In this document: piece by piece, positions 6,866 through 46,310 of the stretch
Layout: each line of letters starts with the position of its first letter
Position numbering within the stretch: the stretch's first letter is position 1
Assembly: GCA_031402655.1 (NCBI GenBank)
Contig: JANNSO010000054.1
Span: 19,058 to 83,057 of the forward strand
Origin: Spirochaetota bacterium
GTDB lineage: Bacteria; Spirochaetota; Spirochaetia; Treponematales; UBA12059
Direction: 5' to 3'
Length of the DNA stretch: 64,000 nucleotides
The notes under the pieces: model-generated
What the model was told of the DNA's origin: nothing
Seen by the model: the letters and a program-made list of their open reading frames with translations, nothing else
Database searches by the model: none
Translations under genes and position numbers: made by a program

Positions 6866-7818
6866 GGGTCTTCGATCCGCTCGGACTCTCGGAGGCATTC
6901 GCATTTCGTGAAAATTTAATAACGCAAGGAACCGACACCCTCAGGCTTTACTCGGGACTCTCCGACGGTACGGACGGCCTGTTCGTCGACAGGTTCGCCG
7001 GTTTCATCTCGGCGACGCTTTATGACCCGCTCATGGCCGGAGCGGCCGCGGCGCTCGCAGCGAGCCTGGAATCCCTGTTTCCCGGCGCAGCCGTCCTTGT
7101 CAAAGCCAGAAAAGACGCGTTTACGAACCAATACGAGTATCTGCATAATCCCCTATGGAGGCGCGAACAGGTGCTTACCTCCTGCGAGGGCGGGCTTCGC
7201 TACGAGATTCACAGCGACCCGCGGCACGACTATGGCCTGTATACAGATACGAAAGCAGCCCGATCCGCTCTGGCTGCCGAGTCGGGCGGGAAGACGATAC
7301 TCAACCTTTTTTCGTACACCTGCGCATTTGCCGTAGCCGCAACGGAGGCTGGCGGCAAACCGGTGAACATCGACCCCAGCCGCGATTACCTGGATTGGGG
7401 GGGACGCAACGCCGCATTGAACAAGCAGACTTTCCTGCGCTATGTGGACACGACCCAGGGCTATTTGGCGCGCCACCTGCGGCGGCTGGAATCCGGAAAG
7501 GATAAGCCTTACGATATTTGCGTCATGGATCCTCCCGCCTTCCTCGTAGGTCGCGGATCGGAACGGCTGGCCCGAAACATGTGGAAATTATGGGCAGACC
7601 AGCTCAAAAAATGTCAGTGCCGCCGCTTTATGCTCGTTTTCAATGATAAATCACCGCAAAACCGTAAGGAACAGCAAGAAACGTTACTAAAAATCTTCGA
7701 TTACGCAATACAGTTCGAAGAACTAGCCCAAAGCCCGGATGTTCTTGGCCAACAACTCACCGGAAACCAGGACAGCTTTTACCTCTCTCCCTCGGTATTT
7801 TGGGCAATCCGGGATTGA
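6796..7818 (+). CDS. class I SAM-dependent (rRNA) methyltransferase, RlmI/RlmK-like
   Basis: SAM-MTase core with ILNLFSYTCAF and VMDPPAF motifs. ATG 6796 overlaps the upstream gene by 70 nt. TTG 6862 (TTGA overlap with the upstream stop) is an equally plausible start. Confidence 0.75.
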   Translation: MRQIPPASRFHGVPGATRGDKALRVFDPLGLSEAFAFRENLITQGTDTLRLYSGLSDGTDGLFVDRFAGFISATLYDPLMAGAAAALAASLESLFPGAAVLVKARKDAFTNQYEYLHNPLWRREQVLTSCEGGLRYEIHSDPRHDYGLYTDTKAARSALAAESGGKTILNLFSYTCAFAVAATEAGGKPVNIDPSRDYLDWGGRNAALNKQTFLRYVDTTQGYLARHLRRLESGKDKPYDICVMDPPAFLVGRGSERLARNMWKLWADQLKKCQCRRFMLVFNDKSPQNRKEQQETLLKIFDYAIQFEELAQSPDVLGQQLTGNQDSFYLSPSVFWAIRD

Positions 7819-7829
7819 GCCCTGTCCCC
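7817..7829 (+). repeat. copy of 13-nt word GAGCCCTGTCCCC
   Basis: Exact copy spanning the TGA stop of the methyltransferase gene, in the 18-nt gap between convergent genes. Confidence 0.9.
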
Positions 7830-7836
7830 ATTTTTT

Positions 7837-9846
7837 CTACTTGAGCGCTCTTGCAGAATTCAGCACGGCGAGCAGGGCAACGCCGACATCCGCGATCACC
7901 GCTTCCCACATGGCAGCCATGCCAAATGCGCCAAAACTAAGGAACACCAGTTTTACCGTCAGGGCGAATGCCACATTCTGGATTACTATCGCCCGAGTTC
8001 TTCTGGCGCGGAAAATCGCCTCCGCCACGCGTGAAGGCTCATCGCTCATGATAACCACATCGGCACTTTCCACCGCTGCATCCGAGCCGGCCCCGCCCAT
8101 GGCAATACCCGTGTCGGCGCGTGCAAGCACCGGCGCATCGTTGACGCCGTCTCCCACAAACACCACGGAACCCCTGTTACCGGAGGCACCCAGACCGCTT
8201 TCCCGTATTATGCTTTCCAGCCTCTCAAGCTTGTGCTCGGGTAAAAGCTGGTGATGAACCTCTTCTATCCCCGCTTCGGCCGCTGCCCTTAAAGCCGCGG
8301 ACTCGGTGTCGCCGGTAAGCATGGCGATCCGCGTTACGCCCAGCTTGCGCAGGGAAACCATGGCGGCATTGCTGTCCGGCTTCAGGGTATCGGCTACGCT
8401 GATCCGGCCCGCATATTTTCCCGCCACGGCAACGTGGATCACGGTATTCTCGAACCTCAAGCCCCCGGGCGGGCAATCGTGCGGAATGTTCTTCAGATGC
8501 AATAAATTATCACCCCCGGCAAGCACCTCCTCGCCGCCGAGCGTAGCCACGGTTCCGTGCCCCGGGATTTCGCTGTAGGTTCCTTCGTCACAGCCGGGAT
8601 GGACGCTGCCGGTTTCCGCGAAGGCTCCTCGAATCGCTCGAGCCAAAGGATGGTTGGAGTGCGTGCCCGCCGCAGCCGCATGGCGCAGCAATTCAGGTGC
8701 CGTAAAGCCGTTGGCGGGTACAAGTTCGTGTACCCGGAAATCGCCGCTGGTCAAGGTTCCCGTCTTGTCGAACACGACGGTCTTCACATCGGCGAGCGAG
8801 TCGAGCACCCGAGCGCCTTTTATGAGGATGCCCCGCCTTGCGGCGCCTCCCAGCCCACCGAAATACGCAAGGGGAACGCTTATGACAAAGGCGCAGGGGC
8901 AGGAAATTACCAGCAGCACCAGAGCCCTGTATGCCCAGTCGGCAAAGCTGCGGTGAACTCCGACGATGAGTCCGCTCAAAGGAGGGACAAGAGCCACCAG
9001 AAGGGCCGCCACGACGACCGCCGGTGTGTACCAGCGGGCAAATCGCGTTATAAATAATTCAGTCCTGGCTTTTGCCTTGGAGGCGTTCTCCACCAGTTCG
9101 ACGATTTTGGCCGACGATGACTCCGAAGCCTTCTTGTCCGCCCGTACGATAAAGGCGGCATCGCGGGCAATATAGCCGGATAAGGCGATATCCCCGGGGA
9201 CAGCCTGGCGCGGCAAAGATTCCCCGGTCATCGATGCGGTATCGAAGGATCCTGTGCCCTCGATAATCTCCCCATCCACGGGGACTCGCTCACCCGGCCT
9301 TACCAGCACCAGCTCTCCTACAACGACGCCCTCGGGTGACAACTCGATCCAGGTGCCGCTTCGCTGTACGCGAGCCATGTCCGGCCTGAGCGCAAGCAGC
9401 GCCCGTATCGACCGGCGGCTCTTGTCGGCAGCGCCATCCTGCAGCATCTCGCCTATTTTATAAAATACCATGACGCCGATTGCCTCTTCCATAGCGCCAA
9501 TCGCGAATGCGCCGAGTGACGCAATGGCCATCAGGAACATCTCGTCGAAAACCCGCCCTCTAAGTATATTCCTCAGGGCGGACCACAGCACATCGTAGCC
9601 CGCCAGCAAATATGCGCCGGCAAAAAGCAGCAGTGCCAGTACCGGAACCCAAGACCCTCGAGCCTCCGCGTCACTTCCTGTCAATAAAAAATATGAAGCC
9701 AGGGCAATAAGCACCGAGATTCCCAAAGGAAGCAGTTTAGCGAAGACTACTTTAGACCCCCCGGATTCCACAGGCTTACCCATATCTTTTGCGCCAGCGC
9801 TGTTAGCACAGCAGGAACACGAAGTTTCCGCAGCTTGTATCTTCAT
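7837..9846 (-). CDS. heavy-metal translocating P1B-type ATPase (Cd/Zn/Co-type)
   Basis: 669 aa. CPC membrane motif (SCPCAF), DKTGTLT phosphorylation site, GDGVNDAP hinge, Cys-rich N-terminus CSCCAN. Lies 1 nt downstream of the arsR-family gene. Confidence 0.9.
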   Translation of the reverse strand: MKIQAAETSCSCCANSAGAKDMGKPVESGGSKVVFAKLLPLGISVLIALASYFLLTGSDAEARGSWVPVLALLLFAGAYLLAGYDVLWSALRNILRGRVFDEMFLMAIASLGAFAIGAMEEAIGVMVFYKIGEMLQDGAADKSRRSIRALLALRPDMARVQRSGTWIELSPEGVVVGELVLVRPGERVPVDGEIIEGTGSFDTASMTGESLPRQAVPGDIALSGYIARDAAFIVRADKKASESSSAKIVELVENASKAKARTELFITRFARWYTPAVVVAALLVALVPPLSGLIVGVHRSFADWAYRALVLLVISCPCAFVISVPLAYFGGLGGAARRGILIKGARVLDSLADVKTVVFDKTGTLTSGDFRVHELVPANGFTAPELLRHAAAAGTHSNHPLARAIRGAFAETGSVHPGCDEGTYSEIPGHGTVATLGGEEVLAGGDNLLHLKNIPHDCPPGGLRFENTVIHVAVAGKYAGRISVADTLKPDSNAAMVSLRKLGVTRIAMLTGDTESAALRAAAEAGIEEVHHQLLPEHKLERLESIIRESGLGASGNRGSVVFVGDGVNDAPVLARADTGIAMGGAGSDAAVESADVVIMSDEPSRVAEAIFRARRTRAIVIQNVAFALTVKLVFLSFGAFGMAAMWEAVIADVGVALLAVLNSARALK

Positions 9847-9847
9847 C

Positions 9848-10219
9848 TCATTTTCCTTTCTGTTCTATAAGGTGACTCCCGGCGACATGAAGAATATCCC
9901 TCACATGCTCGTCATCCAGTGTATAAAAAATTACTTTTCCATCCCGCCTGGGTCGAACAAGGCGGGTCCGCCGTAAAATTGCCAACTGATGGCTGATTGC
10001 GGACTGAGTCATCTCAAGAGCTGCCGCTAGGTCGCAGACACAAAGTTCCGACGCGGAAAGCGCATTCAGGATCCGCAAACGCGTGGCATCGGCAAATACC
10101 TTGAACAAGTCGGCAAGTGGAAGCAGCTCAGTCACGGGCATTTCTGCTTTTCGCGCAGCGTCCAGCGCGTCCGCATGAAGCTCGAGACAGGAACAGATGG
10201 GAATGGTGTCTGATTTCAT
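9848..10219 (-). CDS. ArsR/SmtB-family metal-sensing transcriptional repressor
   Basis: Winged-helix signature ATRLRILNAL..ELCVCDLAAAL..SAISHQLAILR. Start set at ATG 10219 behind GAGAGG (the track ORF extends to 10318). Confidence 0.85.
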   Translation of the reverse strand: MKSDTIPICSCLELHADALDAARKAEMPVTELLPLADLFKVFADATRLRILNALSASELCVCDLAAALEMTQSAISHQLAILRRTRLVRPRRDGKVIFYTLDDEHVRDILHVAGSHLIEQKGK

Positions 10220-10243
10220 GATTAACCTCTCAAACACATGTTC

Positions 10244-10294
10244 ATATGAGCATTTGTTCATATGTAATATAATCCAGTTTGAATGTTTGTGCAA
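10244..10294 (-). promoter_or_regulatory. putative sigma70-type promoter plus ArsR/SmtB-type operator of the arsR-ATPase operon
   Basis: The - strand reads TTGCAC-17 nt-TATATT (10294..10266). This is followed by the 9-2-9 imperfect inverted repeat ATATGAACA-AA-TGCTCATAT (10263..10244). CATATGAACA occurs twice, 16 bp apart. Confidence 0.5.
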
Positions 10295-10465
10295 GAGAAA
10301 TTTATAAAACTGCAACATTGTTTCGATGGAAGCAGGTACAGAATCGCAAAGCGCGCAGGCGCCGGTAGTTTTGATTCGGCGGAGCCACTCCGCTTCCGCT
10401 GACTGATAAAGGCAAGACAGGCTCCTATTTCGGGTAAAACAAGAGCCTCTCTTTTATTAACTAAT

Positions 10466-10707
10466 GGGGACCTCTAAAAACTTCAGTTTTGAGAGGCCTA
10501 CCATTAAAAAACCTGATTCCTCTAAGGAATCAGCGAGGGACCTCTGATAACCAACAAGGTTATTAGCAGCTTGTTGAAAAAGCTTGTGGCTTTTCCAACA
10601 AGCTAAAACATTCCTCGCATTTGATTACAAATGCTGCGGAAATGTTACATTTTGGAAGTGTTGAAAATCCTCATCCGAGGATTTTCAAAACCCTGTTAGA
10701 GGTCCCC
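10466..10707. mobile_element. MITE/PATE-like non-autonomous element (242 bp) made of six hairpins
   Basis: Perfect 12-bp terminal inverted repeats: GGGGACCTCTAA (10466..10477) and TTAGAGGTCCCC (10696..10707). Flanked on both sides by TAAT. Hairpins at 10471-10496, 10513-10533, ~10542-10564, 10571-10601, 10617-10634 and 10661-10688. No ORF. An internal TIR-like GGGACCTCTGATAA at 10537 suggests a nested or composite structure. Confidence 0.6.
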
Positions 10708-12440
10708 TAATTCTTTCCGCCTGCCAGCACGAAGCGCTTGACCTTTTTCGTGGTCGTCATTTCCAGCGGCTCTTCGAGCAGTTTTACCCTGCTGATTCTC
10801 TGGTACGGGAGCATTTCGGCATTCACCTTGTCCACGATAACCTGCATCGCCGCGAGCAGGAGCTCCGTGCCCCGGGCGGCGCTCGCATAGGTATCGGAAA
10901 AATCCTTTGCCGGGTAGATAAAAGCTTCGATTTCCTCGCCGGGGTCATCGCCGGATCCGGAACTCGCCGCAACGTATCCCCGTATCAACACCTGCTCCAC
11001 CTGGGGGAACAACTGGAAGCGGTGTTCTATCTCCTCGGGGTAGACATTCTTGCCGCCCGAGGTAACGATGAGATTTTTGGCCCTGCCGGTTAAGTAAAGA
11101 TAATTATCCCCGTCAATGTAGCCCACATCCCCGGTCTTGAGCCAACCATCCTTGGATAGCACCTCATCCGTGGCAGCCTGGTTTTTATAATACCCCTGCA
11201 TTACCACGGGGCCGCGCACCATGATTTCGCCGCGCTGGTCGTGATCCGGTTCCAGAATCCGCACTTCAAGCTGGGGAATTATTTTGCCGACACTGGTCTC
11301 CTTGTATGCTTCCACAGGATTCAAGGTAAGTATGGGACTCGTTTCCGTTAGTCCATAACCCTGGACAAAATTAATGCCCAACTGGTTGTATTTGCGAAAC
11401 ACGCTGGGAGCCAGCGGTCCGCCACCCGAGATACAGATACGTATCGTCCTGAGGCTAGCCTTGTCCAGCACCGAGCCGAACAATACTTTACCCGGATTCA
11501 TCTTGAATACTTTCTTAATAAACCCCGAGATACCCATCAAGGCACGGATTATTCCGAATACAAACGCTCCTTTTTGCCTAATTCCCTTCATGATTCCGTC
11601 CAGGACCTTGTTAAAAAGCAAAGGTACGCCGAGAAGCATGGTTACTTTTGCTTCCTTTAAATCCTGGAGTATTGCCTTGGTTACCATGCGCTGGCCAAAT
11701 ACAATTTCGGCTCCGACGGATATGGCCTCGATAAAAACCGCAAGCATCGTATAAGAATGGTGGAGCGGCAAAAGGGCGTAAAAAATATCGCTTGCAAAAA
11801 TTTCCATGTTGCACTGCGCAAGAAAGCAGTCGGAAACCAAATTGGCATGCGTGAGCATGACTCCCTTGGGAGTTCCCGTGGTACCGCTGGTAAACAAAAT
11901 CGCCGCCACATCACTCTCTAAGGCCTGTTCAGGCAGGGGATACTCATCCTTGACGGGCAGAGCGTACAGATATCCTGCCTTATTTTTGGAAAGCGACCAC
12001 CGTGCAAGGAGACCAAGCCTGGCAGGCTCGAAGTTATCAAACTTCTCTTCATCGATAAATAAGCCCTTGGCATCCGAAGCTCGGATTATTTTTTCGATTT
12101 CTTCGTTTTTCAGCTGATAATCGATGGGAACGACAACTGCGCCGGCTTGAAGTATCGCCAGATACGCCACAGCCCACTCGGGCGAATTTTTGCCGCTTAC
12201 AGCCACTTTGTCGTGCCTATGAATGCCATTGGCAGCAAGAAATCCCGCAAGTCTCTCGATTTTGTTTAAAGCTTCATTATAGGTTATTGAGTTTCTTCCC
12301 GGATCATAGACGGTAAAGCAAGCCCTGTCCCCAAACTGGGCCGCGGTTAAATGAAACAGTTGGGGAAGAGTCGGCCATTCGCCCGAAAAAAAGCTGCCTT
12401 TATGTTTCTTCAAAGATTCCAGTGGTTCCAAGCCGGGCAT
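10707..12440 (-). CDS. long-chain-fatty-acid--CoA ligase (AMP-dependent synthetase/ligase)
   Basis: 577 aa. AMP-binding motif TSGTTGTPKGVMLTH, GYGLTETS, GWLKTGDVGYID. Confidence 0.9.
   Translation of the reverse strand: MPGLEPLESLKKHKGSFFSGEWPTLPQLFHLTAAQFGDRACFTVYDPGRNSITYNEALNKIERLAGFLAANGIHRHDKVAVSGKNSPEWAVAYLAILQAGAVVVPIDYQLKNEEIEKIIRASDAKGLFIDEEKFDNFEPARLGLLARWSLSKNKAGYLYALPVKDEYPLPEQALESDVAAILFTSGTTGTPKGVMLTHANLVSDCFLAQCNMEIFASDIFYALLPLHHSYTMLAVFIEAISVGAEIVFGQRMVTKAILQDLKEAKVTMLLGVPLLFNKVLDGIMKGIRQKGAFVFGIIRALMGISGFIKKVFKMNPGKVLFGSVLDKASLRTIRICISGGGPLAPSVFRKYNQLGINFVQGYGLTETSPILTLNPVEAYKETSVGKIIPQLEVRILEPDHDQRGEIMVRGPVVMQGYYKNQAATDEVLSKDGWLKTGDVGYIDGDNYLYLTGRAKNLIVTSGGKNVYPEEIEHRFQLFPQVEQVLIRGYVAASSGSGDDPGEEIEAFIYPAKDFSDTYASAARGTELLLAAMQVIVDKVNAEMLPYQRISRVKLLEEPLEMTTTKKVKRFVLAGGKN
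12321..12337 (+). repeat. intragenic copy of the word (AGCCCTGTCCCCAAACT)
   Basis: Exact 12-mer. The 17 nt are identical to array unit 38018..38034. On the coding (-) strand it encodes QFGDRAC of the CoA ligase. Confidence 0.9.
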
Positions 12441-12626
12441 AGAGCCTCCTTTGGGGATTTATCAAAACACTTTAGCAATAGGAACGATAGGGAAGCTCTC
12501 ATAAATGCAGTCTTTAGAGGCAACCAGCATTCTATGATAGTTCCAGTTTCTTAAAAAAAGCAAGTAACCATCGTATAATTTGTTTTTTATGCTATACTGG
12601 CGACTACAGGCTGCAAGGGAGATTTC

Positions 12627-13361
12627 ATGTCAACGAAGGGTTCAAGCATTATAAATAGCTTCATGGCAATCGCGATTCTAGCTCTGGCGTCATGTTCTAC
12701 CCGGGCAAGCATGATTCTCAAGGAAAATGGGGATGCTTCAGTCGCGGTCTATTTTGAGATACCGGCAGCCGTTGAGCTGAAACTCAGGAATCTTGCCGCC
12801 GGAGATTCCGTTTCGGGCAGCTTTTTCGACGCGGCAGCGGTTGAAACGGGCTTGCGTACGCGCGGACTTATCGTGCATGAATCAAGAACTCCCGACGCTC
12901 GCTCGTACAGCGGGTCTTTCGATATAAAATCCCTGCCCTTATTTATTCAAAATGATCCCGAGCTTTCGAAGGCCGGAATCCTTTCCTTTTCCCGCGAAAA
13001 AGGATGGGCGGAAGTCCGTATTCGCATAACAAGGTTAAATTCGAGAGCCCTGGTCAATTTATTTCCCAGTGTCGACATGCAGCTCCTGGAGTCGCTCTCC
13101 CCGCCTGCACTGTTCGATCTTCCTGTCAGCAAGGCTAATTACCGTTCCATGCTTGCCGCGCTCCTGGGAAAAGCCGCAATCGAGGCAATTGATGCCAGTT
13201 CTTTTATCTTATCAATCAGCGTTCCCGGTCCGATATTAGAAAACGATGGCGGTGTAGTCAAAGCCTCTTCCAACGGCCGGATATTCGTATGCACCGTACC
13301 TGTTCTGGATGCCATGACTTTGGAACAGGCTATCACCCTGCGCATCCGGTGGAAAGAATAG
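12627..13361 (+). CDS. hypothetical lipoprotein
   Basis: 244-aa ORF with signal peptide and lipobox (ILALASCS). No recognisable domain. Heads the phosphatase/partner-switching gene string. Confidence 0.6.
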   Translation: MSTKGSSIINSFMAIAILALASCSTRASMILKENGDASVAVYFEIPAAVELKLRNLAAGDSVSGSFFDAAAVETGLRTRGLIVHESRTPDARSYSGSFDIKSLPLFIQNDPELSKAGILSFSREKGWAEVRIRITRLNSRALVNLFPSVDMQLLESLSPPALFDLPVSKANYRSMLAALLGKAAIEAIDASSFILSISVPGPILENDGGVVKASSNGRIFVCTVPVLDAMTLEQAITLRIRWKE

Positions 13362-13442
13362 CCAAGGCAGCTGTGGAATGTCATAAAGTTACCCCCCTAC
13401 TGCGCGTAATGATAGAGAATCTTTTTTCGAGGAGCATATGAC

Positions 13443-17286: not shown

Positions 17287-17296
17287 GCGGATCCAA

Positions 17297-18725: not shown

Positions 18726-18833
18726 GATAAATTCTCCTTCGCCTCTTGCAACGATGCTTACAATACAAAGTATATGCATGAAATCTTTGAAGAGCAAGAA
18801 AGAACAATGGAAAATATTCTCGCGAGGTAGGGG

Positions 18834-19883: not shown

Positions 19884-19977
19884 ACGCCTTAGTATTACAC
19901 TCTCCGTTGGCAAAGTATAGTATCTAAACAGGGAATAATCCAGACGAATTGGAGATTTATGTGTTTTTATTACTCGC

Positions 19978-20724
19978 TTACCCGTTCTTTGTCTTCCATG
20001 CAACCGCTTTCTGGAAAATTTCAAGGCCTAGTCCACCATCAAACCCTCTCCGCCGATAGGGATGGGTGTCTGCATTTATAAAAGCCTCTGGATGCGGCAT
20101 CATGCCTAAAACCCGACCGCTTTTGTCGCAGATACCGGCGATATCATGTACAGCTCCATTAGGGTTTAACCCGTCATATCGCAAAGCAACATGATGCCCG
20201 CTTTCCAGGCGCTCCAATACGGCCTGGTCCCGGGCCACGAAGCGTCCTTCGCCATGCCGGATTGGAAGCATGCGCGGCCCTAAGCCCGAAGTCCAGACAC
20301 AGGGACCTATCTCGAATCGGACCGGAACCCAGTTGTCTTCGTAGCGGCCGTGATTGTTATGCACCAGAGAAACAACTGGTTCGCCCTTATTGTCAAAGTT
20401 CGGTAAAAGCCCTGTTTTTACCAGGGTCTGGAAGCCGTTGCATATGCCTATGACCAACCCCCCGTCGGCTACGAAACATTTGAGCTCTGTCCCCATTCGG
20501 GAGCGAAACAAGTTTGCCGCTACAAGCCCTGACCCTAAATGATCGCCGAAGGAGAATCCACCGGGAAAACCGAGATACTGATAGGCAGCCAAAACGGATG
20601 GGTCGGCAATAAGGTCTGCAGCATGCATACGCGTAGCATCCGCTCCCGCCATGGTAAATGCAGCAGCCAATTCTTCATCGGCATTAACTCCATATCCAGT
20701 AACAATTAACGCTCGAGTTTTCAT
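19978..20724 (-). CDS. purQ: phosphoribosylformylglycinamidine synthase, glutaminase subunit
   Basis: Class I amidotransferase with GICNGFQ nucleophile elbow and MPHPE. Immediately downstream of purL. Start at ATG 20724. Confidence 0.9.
   Translation of the reverse strand: MKTRALIVTGYGVNADEELAAAFTMAGADATRMHAADLIADPSVLAAYQYLGFPGGFSFGDHLGSGLVAANLFRSRMGTELKCFVADGGLVIGICNGFQTLVKTGLLPNFDNKGEPVVSLVHNNHGRYEDNWVPVRFEIGPCVWTSGLGPRMLPIRHGEGRFVARDQAVLERLESGHHVALRYDGLNPNGAVHDIAGICDKSGRVLGMMPHPEAFINADTHPYRRRGFDGGLGLEIFQKAVAWKTKNG
20482..20494 (+). repeat. one-mismatch variant GAGCTCTGTCCCC inside purQ
   Basis: Same variant as at 33861 and 46290. On the coding (-) strand it encodes MGTEL. Confidence 0.8.
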
Positions 20725-20734: not shown

Positions 20735-23700
20735 TCATACGATTGGCGTTTTGAAAGCATTTTCGATGGATTCAAGGCTCACCCTAATGGCTTCTTTATC
20801 CTCGATCTTAATGGAAAGCAGCTCCTGTTTGGTGGTTTCACCTATGTAACGATGGGGAGAGCCGCGCAGAGTAGCTTCAAAGCGCTCGCGATCCTGCCTC
20901 CTTATGGAAACCACGAAGCGGCCACCTGATTCGCAGAACAATGCCCTTGCAGCATATTCGGCGTATGCATGCTCTTTAGGGCCGGACCGCGGCAAAGCGT
21001 TCAGCGTGACAGTTGCGCCCAGGCGGCCTCCCAGGCACGATTCGGCCAATGCAACGGCAATACCGCCATCTGAGCAGTCGTGGCAGGAACGCACGATCCG
21101 GCCAGAAATAGCGTGCGCAAGCGCTTCATACAACTTTTTCGCGCGTTCAAGGTCAACATCCGGCGCCGGTCCATAAAGAGGCGCCGATACAATGGGGACA
21201 GGGCTCGAATTTAGGTTCGAATTTGGGCTCGAATTTAGGTTCGAATTTGGGCCGGGAAAACTTGAAGCGATGCGCTCGAACATGGTACAGCCGAGCTCTC
21301 CGTTTGTGTCCCCGAGAACATAGATTAGGTTACCCGGTTCCAGGAAGTCGGTGGATATGGACTTGCGCACGTCCGTTACCGAGCCCATGAGGGTGACAAG
21401 CAAAGTCGGCCTGACGGAGATCTTCCTGCCGCCCGCGTAGGCATCGTTTTTCATGGAATCCTTGCCTGATACAAGCGGCAGACCGTAACACAGGCAGGCT
21501 TGGCGAAGCCCTTTGCACGCGCGCACGAGTTGTGCCGCCTTGAAGGCGCCATCGGGGGTGCTCGCCGATTCCACGGGGTCGGGCCAGCAAAAATTGTCCA
21601 GCGCGGCGGCCTTGCCCGGGTCTCCTCCAAGGGCTATGTGCGCGCGGTAGGCTTCGTCTACAGCCATGCGAGCCATGACCGCCGTATCGTAATCGGAGTA
21701 ACGGGGACAGATCCCGTGAGTAACGCTGACGCCGCGCTGCGTGGTATAGTCGATGCGCATCACGCCGCCATCGCTGGGCGCGTCGCGCTTTATGCCGGTA
21801 AAGGGCTTCTCCACGGAACGCCCCTGTACCTCATGGTCGTACTGGCGCACGAGGAATTCCTTGCTGGCTACGTTTGGGTCCGCCAGTATGCGAAGCAGGG
21901 TTTCGGTCCAGTCGCTCTTTATCGCGATTGGGTCGTGGCGTCTGGCGACAGGGCTCCATAGCGCCGGAATCTCCATGGCCGGCAGTCCCCGATGGAGGAA
22001 CTCGAGCGACAAGAGCCCCGCGGGCTGCCCGTTGGCAGTTATTTCTATATAACCGGAATCGGTAAACTCTCCCACAACCGTAGCCTCGACGTCGCGGCGC
22101 AGCGCCAGCTCGGCGAGCTGCGCGATTTTCTCCCCGGCTACCGACAGGCTCATCCTCTCCTGGCTTTCGGATACCAGGATTTCCCAGGGAGAGAGGCCGG
22201 GATATTTGAGAGGACATTTGGAAAGATCAATACTAATACCGCCCGAAGACTCCGCCATCTCGCCCAAACTGGATGAAAGCCCGCCGGCGCCGTTGTCTGT
22301 AATTGCCTCGTACAAGCCAAGGTCGCGCGCCTCCAGGAGAAAATCGGTCATGCGCCGCTGGATTATGGGGTCGCCTATCTGCACGGCGGAAACGGGGCTC
22401 AGCTCGTCGAGAGCCAAGCTGGAGAACGTGGCACCGTGAATGCCGTCCTTGCCCACGCGGCCGCCCAGCATCACCGCCAGAGCTCCGGGCCGCACCGTTT
22501 TTTCCCATGATGGCAGCCCGTTTACGGTCTCGGGCATGATGCCCCCGGTACCGCAAAAGACAAGGGGCTTACCCATGAAACTTTCATCAAATAGAAAAGC
22601 CCCGGCGACGGTCGGGATTCCTGACTGGTTGCCTCCGTCCACGATTCCTTTGTGCACGCCTTCGAGAACCTCGCGCGGGTGCATGAGCCCCAGGGGAATA
22701 TCGGCATCGGGTGTGGCGGGATTGGCAAAGCACAGCACGTTGGTATTGAAGAGCGGCTTGGCACCCATCCCCGTACCTAAAATGTCCCGGTTTACGCCGA
22801 CGATGCCGGTAATCGCGCCTCCATAGGGGTCAAGCGCGCTGGGGCTGTTGTGGGTCTCGGCTTTTACGCACAGAACGCTGCCTTCATGAAAAGCCACGAC
22901 CCCGGCATTGTCGGTGAACACCGAGCGCAAAAAAGGCTTCGAAGGCGCAAGATCCTCCGTGGTTTTTTTTATGTATGTTTTGTAAAGCGACTGAATTATT
23001 TCCGTGGGCTTCCCGGTTTCCTGGTATTTAATGGTGGCATTGAAAATTTTATGCTTGCAATGTTCGCTCCAGGTTTGGGCCAGCATTTCGATCTCGACAT
23101 CGGTAGAATCGACGGGCAAACCGCGTTTCGTCCGTTCCTCGCGAACCGCGGGATCGGCGAAATAAGAGCGGATGCGTTGCATTTCAGGCAGGGTAAGCGC
23201 AAGGAGGCGCGAGCTTGAAAGCTCTTGCAGCGCTGCATCATCCATCGCGGCAAGCGCTATGATTTCGGGGTCAAGGCGGTCGTGCAATGCGGGAGCGGCA
23301 TATTCAGCCGGGGGGCGGGTTCCGCTTGCCCATTCCGCGGCTCCGATTATTACAGAACTCTGGACCAGGGGGTTGTGCAGAAAGGAAGCGGCTCGAAGAG
23401 CCATGCCTCTGTCCAAAATTCCAAAAAGCAGATATTGCCTTGCCGTTGATACCGGCGGCGCATCTTTTCCCGTCTCCAATTTGAGGGCTTCATGCGCCGT
23501 AATGGCAAGCGTGTCGGTGACGCCGGGTTTCCATGCCACTTCCACCAGCCACGACCAGCCGCTCAATTCGGGATCGGCAGCGAGAAATCCGTCGAAACGC
23601 AGGGTTTGCACGACAGGATCCGAAAAAACAAGGCGCGCCAGGTCCTGGGACACAAGCGCGCCTGGCAGTATGACGTCCACTACCGCGACCGCGACTTCCG

Positions 23701-27195: not shown

Positions 27196-28136
27196 GCCAA
27201 AACGAGTTTGCACGACTGCTTTCGATAACGGGCAGGTACCCCGCTATCGCCGTACAGGCTCACGATTTTCCCGACCCGGACGCCGCAGCAGCCGCGTTCG
27301 GCCTAGCGGAGCTTCTTCGACAGCACGGTAGAAGCGCTCGCGCTACCTGGCACGGCATGGCACGCAGCCGAAGCCTAGCCAACCTTGCGCTTGAAACAAG
27401 CATCAAACTGTATCCCGAGCCGCCAAAAGCCCCCGAAGCGCTGATTTTTGTCGACTGTGCTCCCGAAAACGGCAACGTAAGCATGGGAGACGCTTCGATC
27501 ATAGCTGTTATAGACCATCATGTACCCGCACACGAAGTAATTGCTCCATTTGTAGACATACGCATGGAGGCAGGATCCTCCTGCTCCATAATCGCCCAAT
27601 ATTGGAAACAGTCAGCCCTGTCCCCACCGAAGGGATTTGCCACGGCCATGCTGGCCGGCTTGCAATCCGATACCGACTTCCTGTCACTCGGTGTAGGCTC
27701 GCTGGAAGTCGAGGCATTTGCCTTTCTTGCCCCTTTGGCCGACATTAGCGCAGCCACGCGCATGCTTAAAACCAATATGGAACACAGCGAACTGGTGGCC
27801 ATTACCCGGGCTTTGGCGGTCGCCGACGTGTATGGCGACAGGATATTGGCCCAGGTAGACATGAATTGCAGCCAGGAAGCGCTTTCCATAGCCGCGGATC
27901 TGGCCCTACGTGCCCGCGAGGTTAAAATCTCGGTAGTCTACTGCGAGGACGGCGAGCACTACAGGCTATCGGTACGCTCCCGGGACCCGGATATGCCGGC
28001 GTTTATTCTGATACGGGAGTTGACGAGAGGCATCGGGTCGGGTGGTGGCCACGCACGCAGCGCAGGTGGTATCATCGCCAAGAAGGATTTCCCCGGCGAT
28101 GCAAGCCTGCTTACGCGCCTTTCCGCAATTCGATAA
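27192..28136 (+). CDS. DHH/DHHA1-family phosphoesterase (NrnA-like)
   Basis: DHH motif IAVIDHHVP and DHHA1 motif GGGHARSAGG. GTG start overlaps the TPR gene stop. Confidence 0.8.
   Translation: MSQNEFARLLSITGRYPAIAVQAHDFPDPDAAAAAFGLAELLRQHGRSARATWHGMARSRSLANLALETSIKLYPEPPKAPEALIFVDCAPENGNVSMGDASIIAVIDHHVPAHEVIAPFVDIRMEAGSSCSIIAQYWKQSALSPPKGFATAMLAGLQSDTDFLSLGVGSLEVEAFAFLAPLADISAATRMLKTNMEHSELVAITRALAVADVYGDRILAQVDMNCSQEALSIAADLALRAREVKISVVYCEDGEHYRLSVRSRDPDMPAFILIRELTRGIGSGGGHARSAGGIIAKKDFPGDASLLTRLSAIR
27613..27625 (+). repeat. intragenic copy CAGCCCTGTCCCC
   Basis: Exact 12-mer AGCCCTGTCCCC. Encodes QSALSP of the DHH protein. Confidence 0.9.
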
Positions 28137-33453: not shown

Positions 33454-34230
33454 ATGATCGAGAATTCCGATACCGGCGGACGGGTATTATACAAGGACGC
33501 TGACCATCAATTTATATGGCTGGGTTCCGACTCGCACCAGAAACAAGGTGTCGTTCAAACCATGCAATACCTGCTAATCGACAAGGGTCGCGGAGTCCTG
33601 CTCGATCCGGGTGGAGTGCATCTGTTCCCCCGGGTCGTAGCGGCGGTTAGTCGTTATATATCCATAGAAGATATCGATACCATTTTCTTTTCCCACCAGG
33701 ATCCCGACGTTTCCAGCGGGATAGCCCTTTGGCTCGGCGTTACAAAAGCAAGAATGTATATTCCCGACCTGTGGCGGCGATTTCTGCCGCATTTTGGCAT
33801 CATGGATACGAGTCGCATCATGTCCATCGAGGAAACCGGCAAGTCGCTCAAGCTTGCCTCGGGGACAGAGCTCGTTTTTGTTCCGTCTCATTATATGCAT
33901 TCACCTGCGGCATTCTCCTTGTACGATAACCGCGCGCGCATTCTATTTTCCGCCGACATTGGCGGCGCCGTATTCCCCGATGGCCAGGAAACAGTTTTTG
34001 TCGATGATTTCCCCGGACATATCAAGCATATAGAAGGATTTCACAAGCGCCTTATCGGATCAAACTCGGTAGCCAGGCTCTGGGTGGATAATGCCCGCCG
34101 ACTTGCCCCGGACATGATAGCGCCCCAACATGGAGCCATTTACCACGGCGATTCCCTAAAAGCATTCCTTGACTGGCTTTCTGCCCTGAAATGCGGCATC
34201 GATATTGCAGAAACCCTGTACCGGATGTAA
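33454..34230 (+). CDS. MBL-fold di-iron protein (flavodiiron-core / ODP-like, no flavodoxin domain)
   Basis: [29 protein letters not shown] and IAPQHGAIY align with the di-iron ligand blocks of flavodiiron beta-lactamase-like domains. Start at ATG 33454, downstream of the terminator-like hairpin. Confidence 0.75.
33861..33873 (-). repeat. one-mismatch variant (GGGGACAGAGCTC on + strand) inside the MBL-fold gene
   Basis: Encodes SGTEL. Same variant as at 20482 and 46290. Confidence 0.8.
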
Positions 34231-36177: not shown

Positions 36178-36190
36178 CAGCCCTGTCCCC
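36178..36190 (+). repeat. intergenic copy CAGCCCTGTCCCC
   Basis: Exact 12-mer, followed by AAGGGC (a short GCCC/GGGC stem is possible). Confidence 0.9.
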
Positions 36191-37812: not shown

Positions 37813-38105
37813 GAGCCCTGGTACAAGCTTCTTATACGCGACTCCTATACGAGCCCTGTCCCCGAACTACCTTGCGCCTCTGTACACGCCACATGCAGGT
37901 GCCCTGTCCCCGAACTAACCCCGACATACCCTGCCCCTCTATACACTTCACCTATACGAGCCCTGTCCCCGAACTTCCCCCGACATACCCTGCCCTTCTG
38001 TACACATCACATGCAGGAGCCCTGTCCCCAAACTACCTTGCCCCTCTATACACTTCACCTATACGAGCCCTGTCCCCGAACTTCCCCCGACATACCTCCC
38101 TCACC
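37813..38105 (+). repeat. tandem array: 5 intact + 1 degenerate copies of the GAGCCCTGTCCCC word in 48/59-bp units
   Basis: Word starts at 37851, 37899 (GTG variant), 37958, 38017 and 38065, with a degenerate copy at 37813. Spacing is 48, 59, 59, 48 bp and all copies share one orientation. Inter-word segments are homologous to each other (accttgc/accctgc-ccctct-a/g-tacac..). The array ends 53 bp before the RAYT-like gene. Confidence 0.9.
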
Positions 38106-38157: not shown

Positions 38158-38673
38158 ATGAGACACAGAAGAATCTTACAAGACGGGGCTTGCTATCATG
38201 TCACGGCGCAAGTCAATAAAAAGGATATGATCCTTGACATTTGCTCCACCAAAGAACTATTCATAGAGGTTCTAAAACGAGCTAAGGCAAAATACAAATT
38301 CCGCGTGGAAAATTTTACCGTCATGGGAAATCATTATCACTTGATGATTCAACCAAAAAACGGGATTTCTTTATCCGCAATAATGCGGTGGATAATGAGC
38401 GTATTTGCCATGGCATATAATCGCCGCACTAATTCCTGCGGGCATGTATGGAATGGCAGATTTTTTTCAAGGATTGTTGAGAACCTCGATCAGTTTTTAA
38501 AAATATTCGGCTATATTGACGAGAATCCCGTTATGGCGCAATTGGTTGAGAATAAAACAGATTGGCGATTCGGAGGAATTTGGCATCACCGTCGGGGCTT
38601 ACACTCGATTGTCGATGAATCACCTGAGTTTATATTACGTTTTTTCCCAGAACACAGGTGCTTTTGCCCTTAA
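38158..38673 (+). CDS. REP-associated tyrosine transposase-like protein (IS200/IS605-type Y1 HUH, COG1943)
   Basis: 171 aa. ACYHVTAQ, HUH motif GNHYHLMIQP, GHVWNGRFFSRIV, and catalytic Tyr context FGYIDENPVMAQLV. The gene is visibly AT-richer (~42% GC in the first 100 nt) than its surroundings. Confidence 0.8.
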   Translation: MRHRRILQDGACYHVTAQVNKKDMILDICSTKELFIEVLKRAKAKYKFRVENFTVMGNHYHLMIQPKNGISLSAIMRWIMSVFAMAYNRRTNSCGHVWNGRFFSRIVENLDQFLKIFGYIDENPVMAQLVENKTDWRFGGIWHHRRGLHSIVDESPEFILRFFPEHRCFCP

Positions 38674-39423: not shown

Positions 39424-39592
39424 GTTCTCTGATTATCAAGCCAAGTATTAACAGGTTGTTGAAAAAGCTTGTGGCTTTTCCAACAATCTTAAACATTCCT
39501 CGCATTTGATTACAAATGCTACGGTAATGTTACATTTTGGAAGTGTTGAAAATCCTCATCCGAGGTTTTTCAACACCCAATTAAAGGACTCC
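39424..39592. repeat. second, end-decayed copy of the multi-hairpin element (matches 10537..10707)
   Basis: Core 39456..39578 differs from 10571..10693 at 6 of ~123 positions by eye. All three hairpins are retained. The terminal GGGACCTCT / AGAGGTCCC ends are degenerate (TTCTCTGAT.. / ..TTAAAGGACTCC). Confidence 0.85.
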
Positions 39593-39644
39593 TCTATAAA
39601 CTATGCCTCCCCTTTGAAACACCCAGCCTGGTTTTCCCCTGGCT

Positions 39645-39656
39645 GGGGACAGGGCT
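39645..39656 (-). repeat. intergenic copy (GGGGACAGGGCT on + strand)
   Basis: Exact 12-mer in reverse orientation. Overlaps a CCCAGCC..GGCTGGG stem. Confidence 0.9.
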
Positions 39657-39812
39657 TGAGAAGAAGGTGCTGCCTGGATGTCGCAATTTTCAAGCTGCAA
39701 AAATCAAATATTGGAAGCTCCAATAACCCTGTCGGTTATCAGAACTTCCAATATGTCTGTTTGACCAAAGAAATGCCGTTAAAACATATTCCTTGTTATT
39801 TTATTTTTTTAC

Positions 39813-40550: not shown

Positions 40551-40587
40551 CGCATTTTTTCTATTGTAGAAAGGGAGGATCGTGTTT

Positions 40588-43181: not shown

Positions 43182-43205
43182 TCCGATCTAAATTAAAGCG
43201 GATGC

Positions 43206-43236: not shown

Positions 43237-44764
43237 ATCGCTGATCGCGACCTTTCGCAAAATACATGCGCTTGTCGGCAAGGGACAACAACTCCTCCAA
43301 TTCCGGAAGCTCAGAGCCGATGGCAGTGGCGGTTCCTATGCTTGCGGAAAGTGTTATAACAATGGTTCCGGAATTTATCGTCGCGCAGCATACCAATTGC
43401 CTCAGTTTGCCTGCGACAAGCTTTACGTCATCCTCGCTGGTCTCAGGAAACGCAAATACGAATTCATCGCCGCCGTACCTCCCTAGAAAATCGCAGGTGC
43501 GGAGCGCAGAAGCGCACAGCTGACTGACCAGGCAGAGAGCCCTGTCCCCGATTGTATGCCCGTGCATATCGTTAATTGTCTTGAAAGCATTCAAATCCAT
43601 GATGGCAACGCTGAATGACCGGCCATAACGTCTGGCACGCTCCAACTCGAGACGCCCCCGCTCAAAAAAGCTGCGGCGATTCATGAGGCTCGTAAGCTCA
43701 TCCGTCGAAGCAAGGTGTAAAAGCCTATCGTTCAGGGCTACCTGGTCGCTTATGTCGCTCAGCCGGTAAATCGTCCCCATCAAGTGGCTGTTCTTGTCCA
43801 ATAATATTGTAGCCGCAACGGTATAGCTTCTCTTGCCTTGCAGCGTGGCTACCTGAAAAGCAAGCGGCGGTTCTGCCGGAAGGGGCAGTTCCTGTTGCAC
43901 TAGAAACGGCAGGAGAACATCATGTGCCGAAACTACCGATTTATCATTCTTCGTGGCTAAAGCGGGCAATAGATCAGAAGCCTTCCGATTGTAATCGACA
44001 ACCGTTCCCAAAGCATCGGCAACAATGAGAGCATCGCCCATTTGCTCAAAAATCCTATCACGGGCAAGCGGTAGAAGATCATGCAGCCGAAACCGCGTGA
44101 AACCCCAGGCAAAGAAAGGTGCTGCAGCAGCCAGCAATACCGGAGAAAAGTCTATGCCGTTGGGAGTCAGGTTCAGCAGATACAGGATGTTACCCACCCA
44201 AGGCAAAAGCGAACCTGCCAAAAAGCATAAAGCCTGCCTTCTCCGGTAAATTTTTTGCGTAACTGCGCCTTTAATAAAAACAAAAGTTCCAAAAACCAGT
44301 GCCAGCTCAAGATATGCAATACTCACAAAATACCAGGGTCCTCGCTCGAAAGCCAGAATGGTCATTCCATTTATAACCCTGATGGTCGGGTTTATATAAA
44401 ACAGCGAATGCTTATCCTGCAATAAAACAAGCACGAACGTGATGGCCGGAATGACAAAAAACATGGGAGCCGGCAACTTGAAACGGCTGCCTCCCTCATA
44501 ATCCCGGACTATCAGAATCCAGAAAGCAGGAAGAAATGCAATGCCGATATATTCTATCCGGATCAGCAGCAATACCAGCTCAAGCGACTGGGACTTGAGC
44601 TCAAGGGCATACCCGCCGGCATAAAATACAAAACAGACGCAAAGAAAAGCAAACCAACATGTCCCCTGCTTTTTCAAAGCCTGAATAAACGCGAATACGG
44701 CCAGGGTACCGCTGCTTCCAGCGCCCATCAACAAGGCAATAAGCACAAACATGTCTATTTGCAT
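43235..44764 (-). CDS. polytopic membrane PAS-GGDEF diguanylate cyclase
   Basis: About 7 N-terminal TM helices and a PAS-like segment. GGDEF domain with NAFKTINDMHGHTIGD and RYGGDEFVF. Confidence 0.85.
   Translation of the reverse strand: MQIDMFVLIALLMGAGSSGTLAVFAFIQALKKQGTCWFAFLCVCFVFYAGGYALELKSQSLELVLLLIRIEYIGIAFLPAFWILIVRDYEGGSRFKLPAPMFFVIPAITFVLVLLQDKHSLFYINPTIRVINGMTILAFERGPWYFVSIAYLELALVFGTFVFIKGAVTQKIYRRRQALCFLAGSLLPWVGNILYLLNLTPNGIDFSPVLLAAAAPFFAWGFTRFRLHDLLPLARDRIFEQMGDALIVADALGTVVDYNRKASDLLPALATKNDKSVVSAHDVLLPFLVQQELPLPAEPPLAFQVATLQGKRSYTVAATILLDKNSHLMGTIYRLSDISDQVALNDRLLHLASTDELTSLMNRRSFFERGRLELERARRYGRSFSVAIMDLNAFKTINDMHGHTIGDRALCLVSQLCASALRTCDFLGRYGGDEFVFAFPETSEDDVKLVAGKLRQLVCCATINSGTIVITLSASIGTATAIGSELPELEELLSLADKRMYFAKGRDQR
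43537..43549 (+). repeat. intragenic exact copy GAGCCCTGTCCCC
   Basis: On the coding (-) strand GGG GAC AGG GCT CTC encodes GDRAL, within the conserved GHxxGD block of the GGDEF domain. Confidence 0.9.
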
Positions 44765-44806
44765 TCAGGACCTTCCTTAAATACATCTATCCCGGTTTTT
44801 ACTTTG

Positions 44807-46132
44807 TCAGAGAATCTGCCCCAGCAGAATAACATACAATACCGCAATAAGGAAAAAAATCATGAGCGGCAGGGCTATGCGCCGAATCGTCGTGGCCGAA
44901 CCCGTCCCAAAGTGTTCCGCACTGACAGCCATGCAGACGTGCAATGGACTCAACATCATGCCGGCGTAACCCGCTGCCCCGGAAAGAACCACGACGGCCT
45001 CCCGTGGAAAGCTTCCTTCCGCCGAGAACAGGCCAAGCACAATGGGAAAAGCCAAGCCGACATAACCGAATCCAACCCCGGTAATCAATCCGGCAATGAA
45101 CGGAAGCAGCACAGCCACAATTAACGGAGAAATACCGAGTGTGGATAGCTCTGCCGTTGCGGAGCCAGCGACACCCCCGGCTTCCAGCAGCGCTGAAAAG
45201 CAGCGGATACCGGCGATCACGGCGACCATCTTGATCGATGCCGGAGTTATGGATTTCTTGAATATTCCCTTCGCCCTGTTACGAAAGATGATAAACAGGG
45301 AAGCTGCTGCTAGACCGATCAATATCGGGAAGAATCGCCCCGCTAAAATGTTTACCCTGGCCGAAAAACCTAAATATTGCCCCAGAAGCTTCCATGCGAC
45401 ATCAAAAAAAACATACGTTCCCAAAACTATTGCCAGAGGTGCAAATCCTTTTATCGCGAGCGAAAGCCGGGACCCAGAGTTGCGGGCGGGGGACAGGGCT
45501 CCGCCAATTCCGGCCTCGTTGATGGTAGCAGAGTTTTTTGTCCGTTTCAGGATAAAAATAGTACCTAGAACAAACAAAGACACCGGAGCGTATAGATTCA
45601 GGAGTATAAGCCGGCCCACCGATATGTTCGCGAGTGTAGAAGTAAGGATAAAAGCTGGGTATAAAGGCCAACTCAGCTCGAGATTATGCCTGAACCAGTA
45701 ATTTATCGCTGAAAGCCTATCCGCCCCTTGAGTACGGCCAGGATCTAGCGCATCCACAAGTGGAGCGGAAAGGACCGCCCCTCCGGGCATCGGTAGCGTT
45801 CCAATCAGTAAAGGCGCGATAGGCAAAGCGGCATTGCTTGTTCTTGTAATAACCCGAATCGCATTGTTGAATGCATCCAGTGCGCCTGCGTTTTTCATGG
45901 CAATGGAAAAAGCCATAATACTAACCATCAATCCAAGAAGAAGCAGAGTATCCGGATCGAGAATCTCGAGAATTATGGTTAAAGCCACCTGTTTTGGGGA
46001 CAGGTCTTGGAAAAAGGCAAAAACAACACCTCCTGCAAGTGCTGCCAGGCCCAAATGGACTTTTTTTGCGCTCGCAAGAACGATAAGGGCAAATATTACA
46101 AGAATTTGAAATAGAACTGGAACAACCGACAC
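44807..46132 (-). CDS. polytopic integral membrane protein (DUF401-like putative transporter)
   Basis: 441 aa, about 10-12 TM helices, GTLPMPGGAVLSAP block. GTG start 7 nt after GGGGAGG. The family assignment is from memory and is tentative. Confidence 0.65.
   Translation of the reverse strand: MSVVPVLFQILVIFALIVLASAKKVHLGLAALAGGVVFAFFQDLSPKQVALTIILEILDPDTLLLLGLMVSIMAFSIAMKNAGALDAFNNAIRVITRTSNAALPIAPLLIGTLPMPGGAVLSAPLVDALDPGRTQGADRLSAINYWFRHNLELSWPLYPAFILTSTLANISVGRLILLNLYAPVSLFVLGTIFILKRTKNSATINEAGIGGALSPARNSGSRLSLAIKGFAPLAIVLGTYVFFDVAWKLLGQYLGFSARVNILAGRFFPILIGLAAASLFIIFRNRAKGIFKKSITPASIKMVAVIAGIRCFSALLEAGGVAGSATAELSTLGISPLIVAVLLPFIAGLITGVGFGYVGLAFPIVLGLFSAEGSFPREAVVVLSGAAGYAGMMLSPLHVCMAVSAEHFGTGSATTIRRIALPLMIFFLIAVLYVILLGQIL
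45489..45501 (-). repeat. intragenic exact copy (GGGGACAGGGCTC on + strand)
   Basis: The coding (-) strand reads GGA GCC CTG TCC CCC = GALSP. Confidence 0.9.
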
Positions 46133-46164
46133 AAAAAACCTCCCCTGAAGTTCAATATCATGGG

Positions 46165-46194
46165 ATTATAAGGGTTTATTTATCCGCTGTACAA
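46165..46194 (-). promoter_or_regulatory. putative sigma70-type promoter of the DUF401-like gene
   Basis: The - strand reads TTGTAC (46194..46189)-18 nt-TATAAT (46170..46165), immediately downstream of the 34-bp repeat array. Confidence 0.4.
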
Positions 46195-46216
46195 GGATTA
46201 TTTCGCGGCAGCATAT

Positions 46217-46310
46217 AAAGTGGGGACAGGGCTCAGCTAAAACGGCTTACAAAGTGGGGACAGGGCTCAGCTAAATCGGTATATAAAGTGGGGACAGAGC
46301 TCACTATAAA
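46217..46310 (-). repeat. 3 x 34-bp tandem direct repeats, each carrying the word
   Basis: AAAGTGGGGACAGGGCTCAGCTAAA(A/T)CGG.. units start at 46217, 46251 and 46285. Word copies are at 46222, 46256 (exact) and 46290 (GAGCTC variant). Lies between the TonB-like stop and the DUF401-like promoter. Confidence 0.9.

Follow-up and report, generated by a model that had tools for sequence, protein, structure and literature searches.

We detected a 12–13-nt word that recurs in both orientations, within genes and between them, across positions 7817–46312 of a 64,000-nt stretch of a Spirochaetota bacterium (assembly GCA_031402655.1, contig JANNSO010000054.1, positions 19,058 to 83,057; the whole stretch is hereafter the window), and that forms a five-copy array directly upstream of a gene for a REP-associated tyrosine transposase (RAYT; REP, repetitive extragenic palindrome). 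Words of the same family precede RAYT genes in related genomes, in two lineages as the arms of a hairpin, and many of the window's copies persist at matching places in the nearest available relative. Judging from these comparisons, a Spirochaetia RAYT, apparently inherited vertically, probably has this word as the core of its own REP-like repeat family, and in this genome the repeat would be reduced to its recognition core. The genes of the window are ordinary chromosomal ones for purine synthesis, signalling, transport and ferritin. Homologues of its PurL come from Spirochaetia and Spirochaetales metagenome-assembled genomes (MAGs), with Rectinemataceae and Treponema at ~60% identity.

Abundance and placement of the word

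The 11-mer GCCCTGTCCCC occurs 15 times exactly in the window, both strands counted, as an earlier note made from the letters alone had reported copy by copy. Its claim of over-representation is borne out: the 11-mer never appeared across 100 dinucleotide-preserving shuffles of the window, and the 13-mer GAGCCCTGTCCCC at one mismatch or fewer gave 19 matches with 0.08 expected. These matches include the three single-substitution GAGCTCTGTCCCC variants that the note had listed, at 20482 (plus strand), 33861 and 46290 (both minus strand), hereafter the T-variant, and one that it overlooked, GAGCCCTGTCGCC at 21944 (minus strand). The sharpest unit is the 12-mer AGCCCTGTCCCC, with 14 exact copies, mostly preceded by G and followed by A or G. 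Its copies at zero, one and two mismatches number 14, 6 and 9, with a total of ~5.6 expected, and this predominance of exact copies is unlike a decaying repeat family. Comparison of the 45 nt on either side of each copy revealed nothing common to the flanks outside two tandem arrays, so the repeated unit is the short word itself, which is not self-complementary and reads GGGGACAG-N-GCTC on its G-rich strand.

Inside the window's genes (52 were called) there are five exact and two variant copies, and the word is read in three frames, as G-D-R-A (with AGG for Arg), A-L-S-P and S-P-V-P, with the T-variant read as G-T-E-L. When synonymous codons were shuffled within each gene, preserving the protein and the per-gene codon usage, the 12-mer was expected 0.025 times inside genes against five observed, and the C/T family 12-mer 0.055 times against seven; none of 2000 shuffles reached these counts, and the local codon usage that the earlier note had named as a possible undoing of its claim does not account for the copies. 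Independent sequence from a relative shows enrichment of the word as well: in two stretches totalling 43 kb of GCA_964485395.1, the nearest available genome (PurL 86% identical), L130 has five matches at one mismatch or fewer in 23 kb and L131 has ten in 20.5 kb. An origin in chance, base composition or the codon usage of common peptides, which has nothing on its side beyond the moderate G+C content, has a practically negligible probability given the empty shuffles, the codon null and the relative. The word is thus real and far above chance. The loci in the window are as follows.

7817..7829, plus strand: single word GAGCCCTGTCCCC in the spacer of two convergent genes, its first bases overlapping the TGA stop of a SAM (S-adenosylmethionine)-methyltransferase gene (6796-7818)
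12320..12332, plus strand: word AAGCCCTGTCCCC in an AMP-binding CoA-ligase gene, antisense; G-D-R-A, Arg codon AGG
20482..20494, plus strand: T-variant GAGCTCTGTCCCC in purQ, antisense; G-T-E-L
21194..21206, minus strand: word in a variable loop of purL, sense; S-P-V-P
21201..21252, minus strand: 12-nt tandem repeat of TCGAATTTAGGT type in purL, abutting and overlapping the 5' part of the purL word
21944..21956, minus strand: one-mismatch copy GAGCCCTGTCGCC in purL, of uncertain family membership
27613..27625, plus strand: word CAGCCCTGTCCCC in a DHH/DHHA1 phosphoesterase gene, sense; A-L-S-P
33861..33873, minus strand: T-variant in an ODP/metallo-beta-lactamase gene, antisense; G-T-E-L
36178..36190, plus strand: single intergenic word in the spacer between a 2-hydroxyacid dehydrogenase gene and SpoU
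37813..38105, plus strand: array 1, five direct words with periods of 48/59 nt; the plus strand is C-rich
38158..38673, plus strand: RAYT of 171 aa, a Y1 HUH enzyme by profile, fold and motifs
39645..39657, minus strand: single intergenic word past the ferritin gene, inverted relative to array 1
43537..43549, plus strand: word in a 7TM-GGDEF gene, antisense; I-G-D-R-A-L
45489..45501, minus strand: word in a poorly conserved loop of a DUF401 gene, sense; A-L-S-P
45996..46007, minus strand: degenerate copy AGACCTGTCCCC in DUF401, where the orthologue has an intact T-variant word
46211..46312, minus strand: array 2, three words with a period of 34 nt, the last a T-variant, in the spacer between DUF401 and a gene for a 314-aa protein

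The gene assignments of the earlier note (CoA ligase, DHH/DHHA1, ODP/metallo-beta-lactamase, 7TM-GGDEF, DUF401, purL and purQ) hold throughout. Among the three single copies that it had placed between genes, 36178 stands as such, 7817 shares its first bases with a stop codon, and 39645 falls in a 104-aa open reading frame (ORF), which we treated as spurious, counting the locus as intergenic. Half of the exact-word loci (5/10) lie in the ~7% of the window that is non-coding, making the word ~13-fold denser between genes than within them, and its density in the sampled sequence (the window and the 43 kb of the nearest relative) is 0.2–0.5 per kb. Seven loci are on the plus strand and five on the minus strand despite a GC skew that is negative in 15 of 16 4-kb bins, that is, nearly throughout the window; the word is thus no replichore-polar signal, as the note had argued, and differs from Chi and KOPS (FtsK-orienting polar sequences) in having no strong replication-direction bias. 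Seven of the 12 loci lie within 10 kb of the RAYT, an apparent 2–3-fold excess that is only marginally significant, and the 25 kb at 1–7800 and 46320–64000 hold no copy at one mismatch or fewer, which together hint at local copy spread.

We found no match to any Rfam family at the gathering threshold across the window. A full-text literature search for the word, its complement and its T and A variants returned only primers and unrelated eukaryotic sequences, and a search on over-represented oligonucleotides of spirochaetes returned nothing relevant. Scans of genome and metagenome collections for two words 20–50 nt apart yielded only unrelated tandem repeats of high G+C content.

The RAYT and its leader words in related lineages

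The 171-aa product of 38158–38673 matched Pfam Y1_Tnp (PF01797, E = 4e-13) and the NCBIfam model of REP-associated tyrosine transposases (NF047646, 88.3 bits, cut-off 80), with only 27 bits to the IS200 model NF033573 (below its cut-off of 55). Its sole sequence match in the PDB was 4ER8, the E. coli TnpA-REP, which was also the best fold match (TM 0.69/0.72) of an AlphaFold model of moderate confidence (mean pLDDT 71); the IS608, IS200 and ISDra2 transposases reached TM ~0.5. The HUH motif H59-x-H61 (H-Y-H) and Y119 (in YIDENP) are invariant in 10 homologues. By profile, fold and intact HUH/Tyr motifs the protein is a bona fide RAYT, and what the earlier note had called a RAYT-like enzyme can be named as one. 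The gene order SpoU-RAYT-ferritin is kept in three lineages with RAYT identities of 100, 78 and 71%, which looks like the vertical inheritance of a domesticated gene. We saw a single RAYT in the regions sampled from the window's lineage and 2–4 copies in some relatives, and a tblastn search of plasmids with the RAYT found only distant transposases at 36% identity or less. A 131-aa ORF between SpoU and the RAYT (37352–37747, plus strand), whose N-terminus is PIN-like (MRVMLDTNCID) and which matched nothing in Pfam or NCBIfam, is kept in the same place in L131 of the closest relative and may be a partner or a neighbour of the RAYT.

Words lie directly upstream of the RAYT not only in the window (five) but also in L131 (two, gatCAGCCCTGTCCCCa) and in L133 and L134 (one and two, AAGCCCTGTCCCC). 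More distant RAYT homologues (53–60% identity) in unrelated neighbourhoods are preceded by small arrays of a word that varies at one central base, and in four of these loci the RAYT-adjacent variant also ranks first or nearly first among the k-mers of its own locus.

L135: RAYT-adjacent variant AGCTCTGTCCC
L136: RAYT-adjacent variant CGAGCACTGTCCC
L138: RAYT-adjacent variant GAGCTCTGTCCC, on both sides of the RAYT
L142: RAYT-adjacent variant CGAGCACTGTCCC

L135 and L142 come from one genome (GCA_026398615.1), so that a different variant accompanies each of its two RAYT paralogues; in either sampled region the only variant present is that of the local paralogue. We pooled eight independent RAYT contexts from related MAGs and counted the family words GC[A/C/T]CTGTCCC in the 300 nt upstream of each gene. 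There were 17 in these 2.4 kb and 48 in the remaining 204 kb, a 30-fold enrichment. At least one word was present in seven of the eight contexts, an outcome with an estimated probability below 0.001 even at an intergenic background of ~1 per kb, and six of those seven had at least two. The eighth context, L137, has its RAYT homologue beside AbiE-type defence genes and phage tail-like genes (7600–20500), with a palindrome, GGGGACAGTCCCC, upstream.

Two distant lineages carry a fuller element in the RAYT leader, in which the tag GGGGA is followed by an 11-bp stem with an 8-nt loop, 22–24 nt before the RAYT start codon. The arms of the stem are the word in inverted orientation.

L140, at four RAYT copies: GGGGA-CAGTGCTCGGC-tcaatcaa-GCCGAGCACTG
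L141: GGGGA-CAGAGCTCGAT-gcaatcat-ATCGAGCTCTG

Folded as DNA, these leaders reach −12 to −18 kcal/mol, with z down to −4.9, and pairing holds in 96% of the pair cells of their alignment, with compensatory changes in three pairs; with only two independent lineages this covariation is suggestive rather than strong. The four RAYT-like genes of L140 all lie within 10 kb (1–10600) and all have the tag-plus-hairpin leader. An RHS-repeat toxin cassette precedes three of them (in one case with a leucine-rich repeat (LRR) protein between) and the fourth comes directly after the third, so that L140 shows insertion sequence (IS)-like behaviour of the same protein family, apparently linked to turnover of the RHS cassette.

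When all copies in the window, L130 and L131 were folded with 30 nt of flank on either side, no hairpin emerged (z −1.4 to +2.5), and a hairpin or terminator as the common feature of the word was rejected. The window's lineage has the tag and one arm only, a half-site, as single copies and short direct-repeat arrays. The view in the earlier note that the word is neither a palindrome nor a classical REP hairpin is correct for this genome and misses the word's role as hairpin arm and 5' tag in distant relatives.

Conservation, arrays and origin of the copies

Across 27 pairs of orthologues aligned by codon (window versus L130/L131), third-position identity was 0.50, and only 6.2% of 11-nt windows were identical. 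Against this background, the comparison that the earlier note had proposed, whether a related genome has the word at the same codons, returned an identical word at four of eight in-gene loci (purQ, purL, ODP and CoA ligase), while a fifth, DUF401 (45489), keeps a family member at the same codons, C in the window and the T-variant in the orthologue. In the CoA ligase the word occupies the matching N-terminal position of the relative (L130 22942), in purL the relative has GAGCCCTGTCCCT at the place of the 21194 word, and in ODP the T-variant is identical despite differences at the synonymous sites around it. All four syntenic intergenic loci (before SpoU, upstream of the RAYT, beyond ferritin and in the DUF401 spacer) keep the word in the same spacer and orientation in the relative while their flanks diverge, and in two of the four the word is the longest conserved block, as in the 36178 spacer. 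The 39645 word is the only long invariant block of its spacer across three lineages. Copies that stay intact over such divergence, in genes and spacers alike, are old and maintained, and their maintenance may come either from selection for a site useful to the host or from RAYT-dependent homogenisation.

Tandem Repeats Finder and a repeat finder confirmed the two arrays named in the earlier note, array 1 at 37860–38086 with periods of 48/59 and array 2 at 46211–46303 with a period of 34. The last word of array 1 ends 80 nt upstream of the RAYT start. BLAST of the window against all retrieved loci matched only L001 and L002. In a Logan contig of 100% identity to the window, array 1 differs by 107 bp from word to word, with three words where the window has five. 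We looked for polymorphism of array 2 in the other sample and found none (100% identical), while the same spacer in the relative has two words with a 23-nt period. Unit lengths vary by locus and lineage (48/59, 34, 12, 50, 23, 18 and ~13 nt), and the arrays are local and dynamic; they also appear to break short-read assemblies. In purL, the 12-nt repeat accounts for the larger part of a low-complexity, in-frame insertion of 24 aa (…PNSNLNSSPNSNLNSS…), which lies in a variable loop and has no counterpart in the orthologue of 86% identity; the repeat has grown from the 5' edge of a word already present in the common ancestor. Two of the window's three canonical G-quadruplex motifs fall on the G-rich strand of array 1 (37908–37995, minus strand). 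G-quadruplex formation was rejected as the common feature, since the T and A variants destroy the second G-run and it is thus not the conserved property.

Conservation of place and sequence of a purifying type, in coding and non-coding DNA, would also be expected if an abundant chromosomal protein distinct from the RAYT (a nucleoid, segregation or global regulatory protein) bound the word and selection kept its sites, with the RAYT promoter merely carrying some of them. The arrays resemble iteron or centromere-like site clusters, and the loci appear regionally clustered, with none at one mismatch or fewer in 1–7.8 kb or 46.3–64 kb. We nevertheless judge this quite unlikely, as the RAYT co-varies with the word and no other candidate protein does, the variant differs between RAYT paralogues of one genome, and the compensatory changes of the hairpin suggest that a single strand is recognised, as by HUH enzymes.

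How copies came to lie in genes bears on two further alternatives. At three of the eight in-gene loci the word is in one genome only, and there the counterpart differs by substitutions with no indel. In the 7TM-GGDEF gene, GGG GAC AGG GCT in the window corresponds to GGC GAC AAG GCT in the orthologue, two substitutions that exchange R and K. The PurQ word lies in an ungapped block of 120 homologues that mostly read RPAL or RPEL, with GTEL in four only, so it arose by substitution and shaped the peptide. What separates the checked in-gene copies (GGDEF, purQ and the second DUF401 site) from word-less sequences is thus point substitution or conversion of very short patches, and no insertion. At 9273 of L131, a word is present within a 12-codon insertion in the low-complexity C-terminal tail of the relative's SpoU, so some in-gene copies do come with inserted sequence.

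Origin by substitution, together with placement in genes, in spacers and in all reading frames, might make the word a by-product of mutation or repair bias, such as very-short-patch repair or the methylation-linked drive proposed for HIP1 (highly iterated palindrome 1), with no protein reading it. HIP1 of cyanobacteria is an 8-bp palindrome linked to methyltransferases; like this word, it is short, created by substitution and conserved beyond expectation in genes and spacers. The present word differs in being 12–13 nt long, non-palindromic and RAYT-linked, and is unlike known methylase- or repair-linked words. A repair bias, which would not place arrays by RAYT genes or build a RAYT leader hairpin, is in our estimate highly improbable.

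Another parallel is the DNA-uptake sequence or uptake signal sequence (DUS/USS) of Neisseria and Pasteurellaceae, which would accrue by point mutation through the import preference of the competence machinery. The word shares with such signals its length, both orientations, several coding frames, a density of the same order (somewhat lower here, at 0.2–0.5 per kb), placement in genes and spacers with intergenic enrichment, an origin by substitution without indels, orthologous sites conserved between related species and a predominance of exact copies. Even so, an uptake signal seems to us very unlikely, because it leaves unexplained the 30-fold concentration upstream of RAYTs in 7/8 contexts, the two variants in one genome that each lie beside their own RAYT paralogue, and the use of the word as both arms of the RAYT leader hairpin. 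The arrays are direct, with locus-specific periods, and lack the inverted terminator pairs typical of DUS/USS; no competence genes were detected among the window's genes, a weak test in 64 kb.

We also detected a second, unrelated repeat, D2, in two copies (10542–10708 and 39427–39593) of ~153–167 nt that are 87–91% identical. It has two internal hairpins, e.g. GTGTTGAAAATCCTC-atcc-GAGGATTTTCAAAAC, and looks like a MITE (miniature inverted-repeat transposable element), and its interior is where two short-read contigs of the same strain break off. D2 was rejected as the true REP, and since it is absent from the matching spacer of relatives and not adjacent to the RAYT we treated it as a separate MITE-like element. 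Elsewhere in the window, a 388-aa protein (2881–4047, minus strand) has two adenylate-kinase (ADK) domain matches and is apparently a tandem ADK fusion.

Comparison with known REP and RAYT systems

To our knowledge, REP/RAYT systems have been characterised almost entirely in Proteobacteria and are defined by a stem-loop. The gammaproteobacterial reference systems are the REPs and BIMEs (bacterial interspersed mosaic elements) of E. coli with TnpA-REP, and the REPINs (REP doublets forming hairpins) of Pseudomonas with Group 2 and 3 RAYTs. The window resembles these in having an apparently vertically inherited, syntenic RAYT flanked by a very short repeat that is over-represented elsewhere, in the pairing of RAYT paralogues with different repeat variants and in the persistence of repeats at orthologous positions, and the element of L140 and L141, a 5' tag followed by a stem-loop, is built as classical REPs are. 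It differs in that its unit is a 12–13-nt non-palindromic half-site without a stem-loop, that the conserved end is GGGGA(CA) in place of GTAG or CGTC (GTAG stands 3 nt from the word in only two of the five array-1 units), that its arrays are direct tandem ones where BIMEs alternate and REPIN doublets are inverted, and that genes contain about half of the loci, a number of them at conserved codons, with those checked derived by substitution. Repeat finding and folding in the window found no inverted word pairs of the REPIN type.

REPs have been defined as extragenic, 20–40-nt imperfect palindromes that form a stem-loop and have a GTAG or CGTC tag at one end (PMC3733652). The repeat of the window fails on palindrome, tag and extragenic location and has the RAYT association, so we regard it as a REP/RAYT-type system and not as a member of the REP family. 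Similarities to the IS200/IS605 elements IS608 and ISDra2 include the Y1 HUH enzyme, the subterminal hairpin that L140 and L141 have near the gene's 5' end, and the multi-copy, IS-like state of L140, with four copies in 10 kb. The window's enzyme, however, agrees better with the profile and fold of RAYTs than with those of IS200 transposases and is syntenic in three sampled lineages, and the word is dispersed without the gene.

Several observations weigh against a RAYT-linked repeat family. None of the copies in the window or its closest relative has the stem-loop that defines REPs, and the full hairpin is present in two independent lineages only. Between five and seven of the 12 loci lie in genes, the checked ones without indels, which cut-and-paste of an element fails to explain; these substitution-derived copies are the weakest point and agree with a model of drive or selection such as that of DUS/USS or HIP1. 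L137 lacks a family word in the 300 nt by its RAYT and has only the related palindrome. C-variant RAYTs form a separate clade by sequence identity, while the T and A variants are intermixed and fail to separate cleanly, and a RAYT phylogeny that tracks the middle base of the word was rejected, as only the C-variant clade separates cleanly. The orientation of the RAYT-proximal word is also opposite in the window's lineage and the distant lineages. Among the explanations that the earlier note had offered, the REP-like, RAYT-associated one has gained comparative evidence, while an uptake signal and a site for a RAYT-unrelated protein have gained no support in the sequence covered.

We still favour a RAYT-associated repeat core as the probable explanation, and the sequence patterns suggest how the RAYT may act on the word. 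HUH/Y1 relatives of RAYTs act on single-stranded DNA. The RAYT would recognise the 12–13-nt site, probably in single-stranded form, and would cut and rejoin DNA beside it. Strand transfer between copies could then generate and resize local tandem arrays, as slippage at the word would do likewise, and RAYT activity may seed new copies preferentially near the RAYT gene. The second hairpin arm would have been lost in the window's lineage, with the remaining copies kept intact by selection or by RAYT-dependent homogenisation. A more far-reaching version, which we hold to be unlikely but worth stating, is that a domesticated Spirochaetia RAYT reads a linear, hairpin-less 12-mer as a host-maintained signal under purifying selection in the coding and non-coding DNA of more than one species, not as a selfish REPIN population. 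If true, this would be a new mode of DNA recognition by RAYTs and would give a RAYT-repeat pair a cellular function.

In published RAYT surveys, abundant flanking 16-mers were tied to Groups 2 and 3 only (PMC5581495). With a word of only 12–13 nt, such 16-mer screens would probably miss systems of this kind, as would palindrome-based repeat screens. Relatives with tag and hairpin, beside this genome with tag and one arm, offer a natural dissection of the repeat, in which the half-site alone is abundant, conserved at orthologous codons and in spacers, and tied to local tandem duplication, including in the essential gene purL. If the RAYT acts on the half-site, the minimal recognition element would be defined, and RAYT-linked repeats would be shaping proteins (R versus K in GGDEF; GTEL in PurQ). 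The system thus bears on what RAYTs do for the cell and on how they recognise their repeats.

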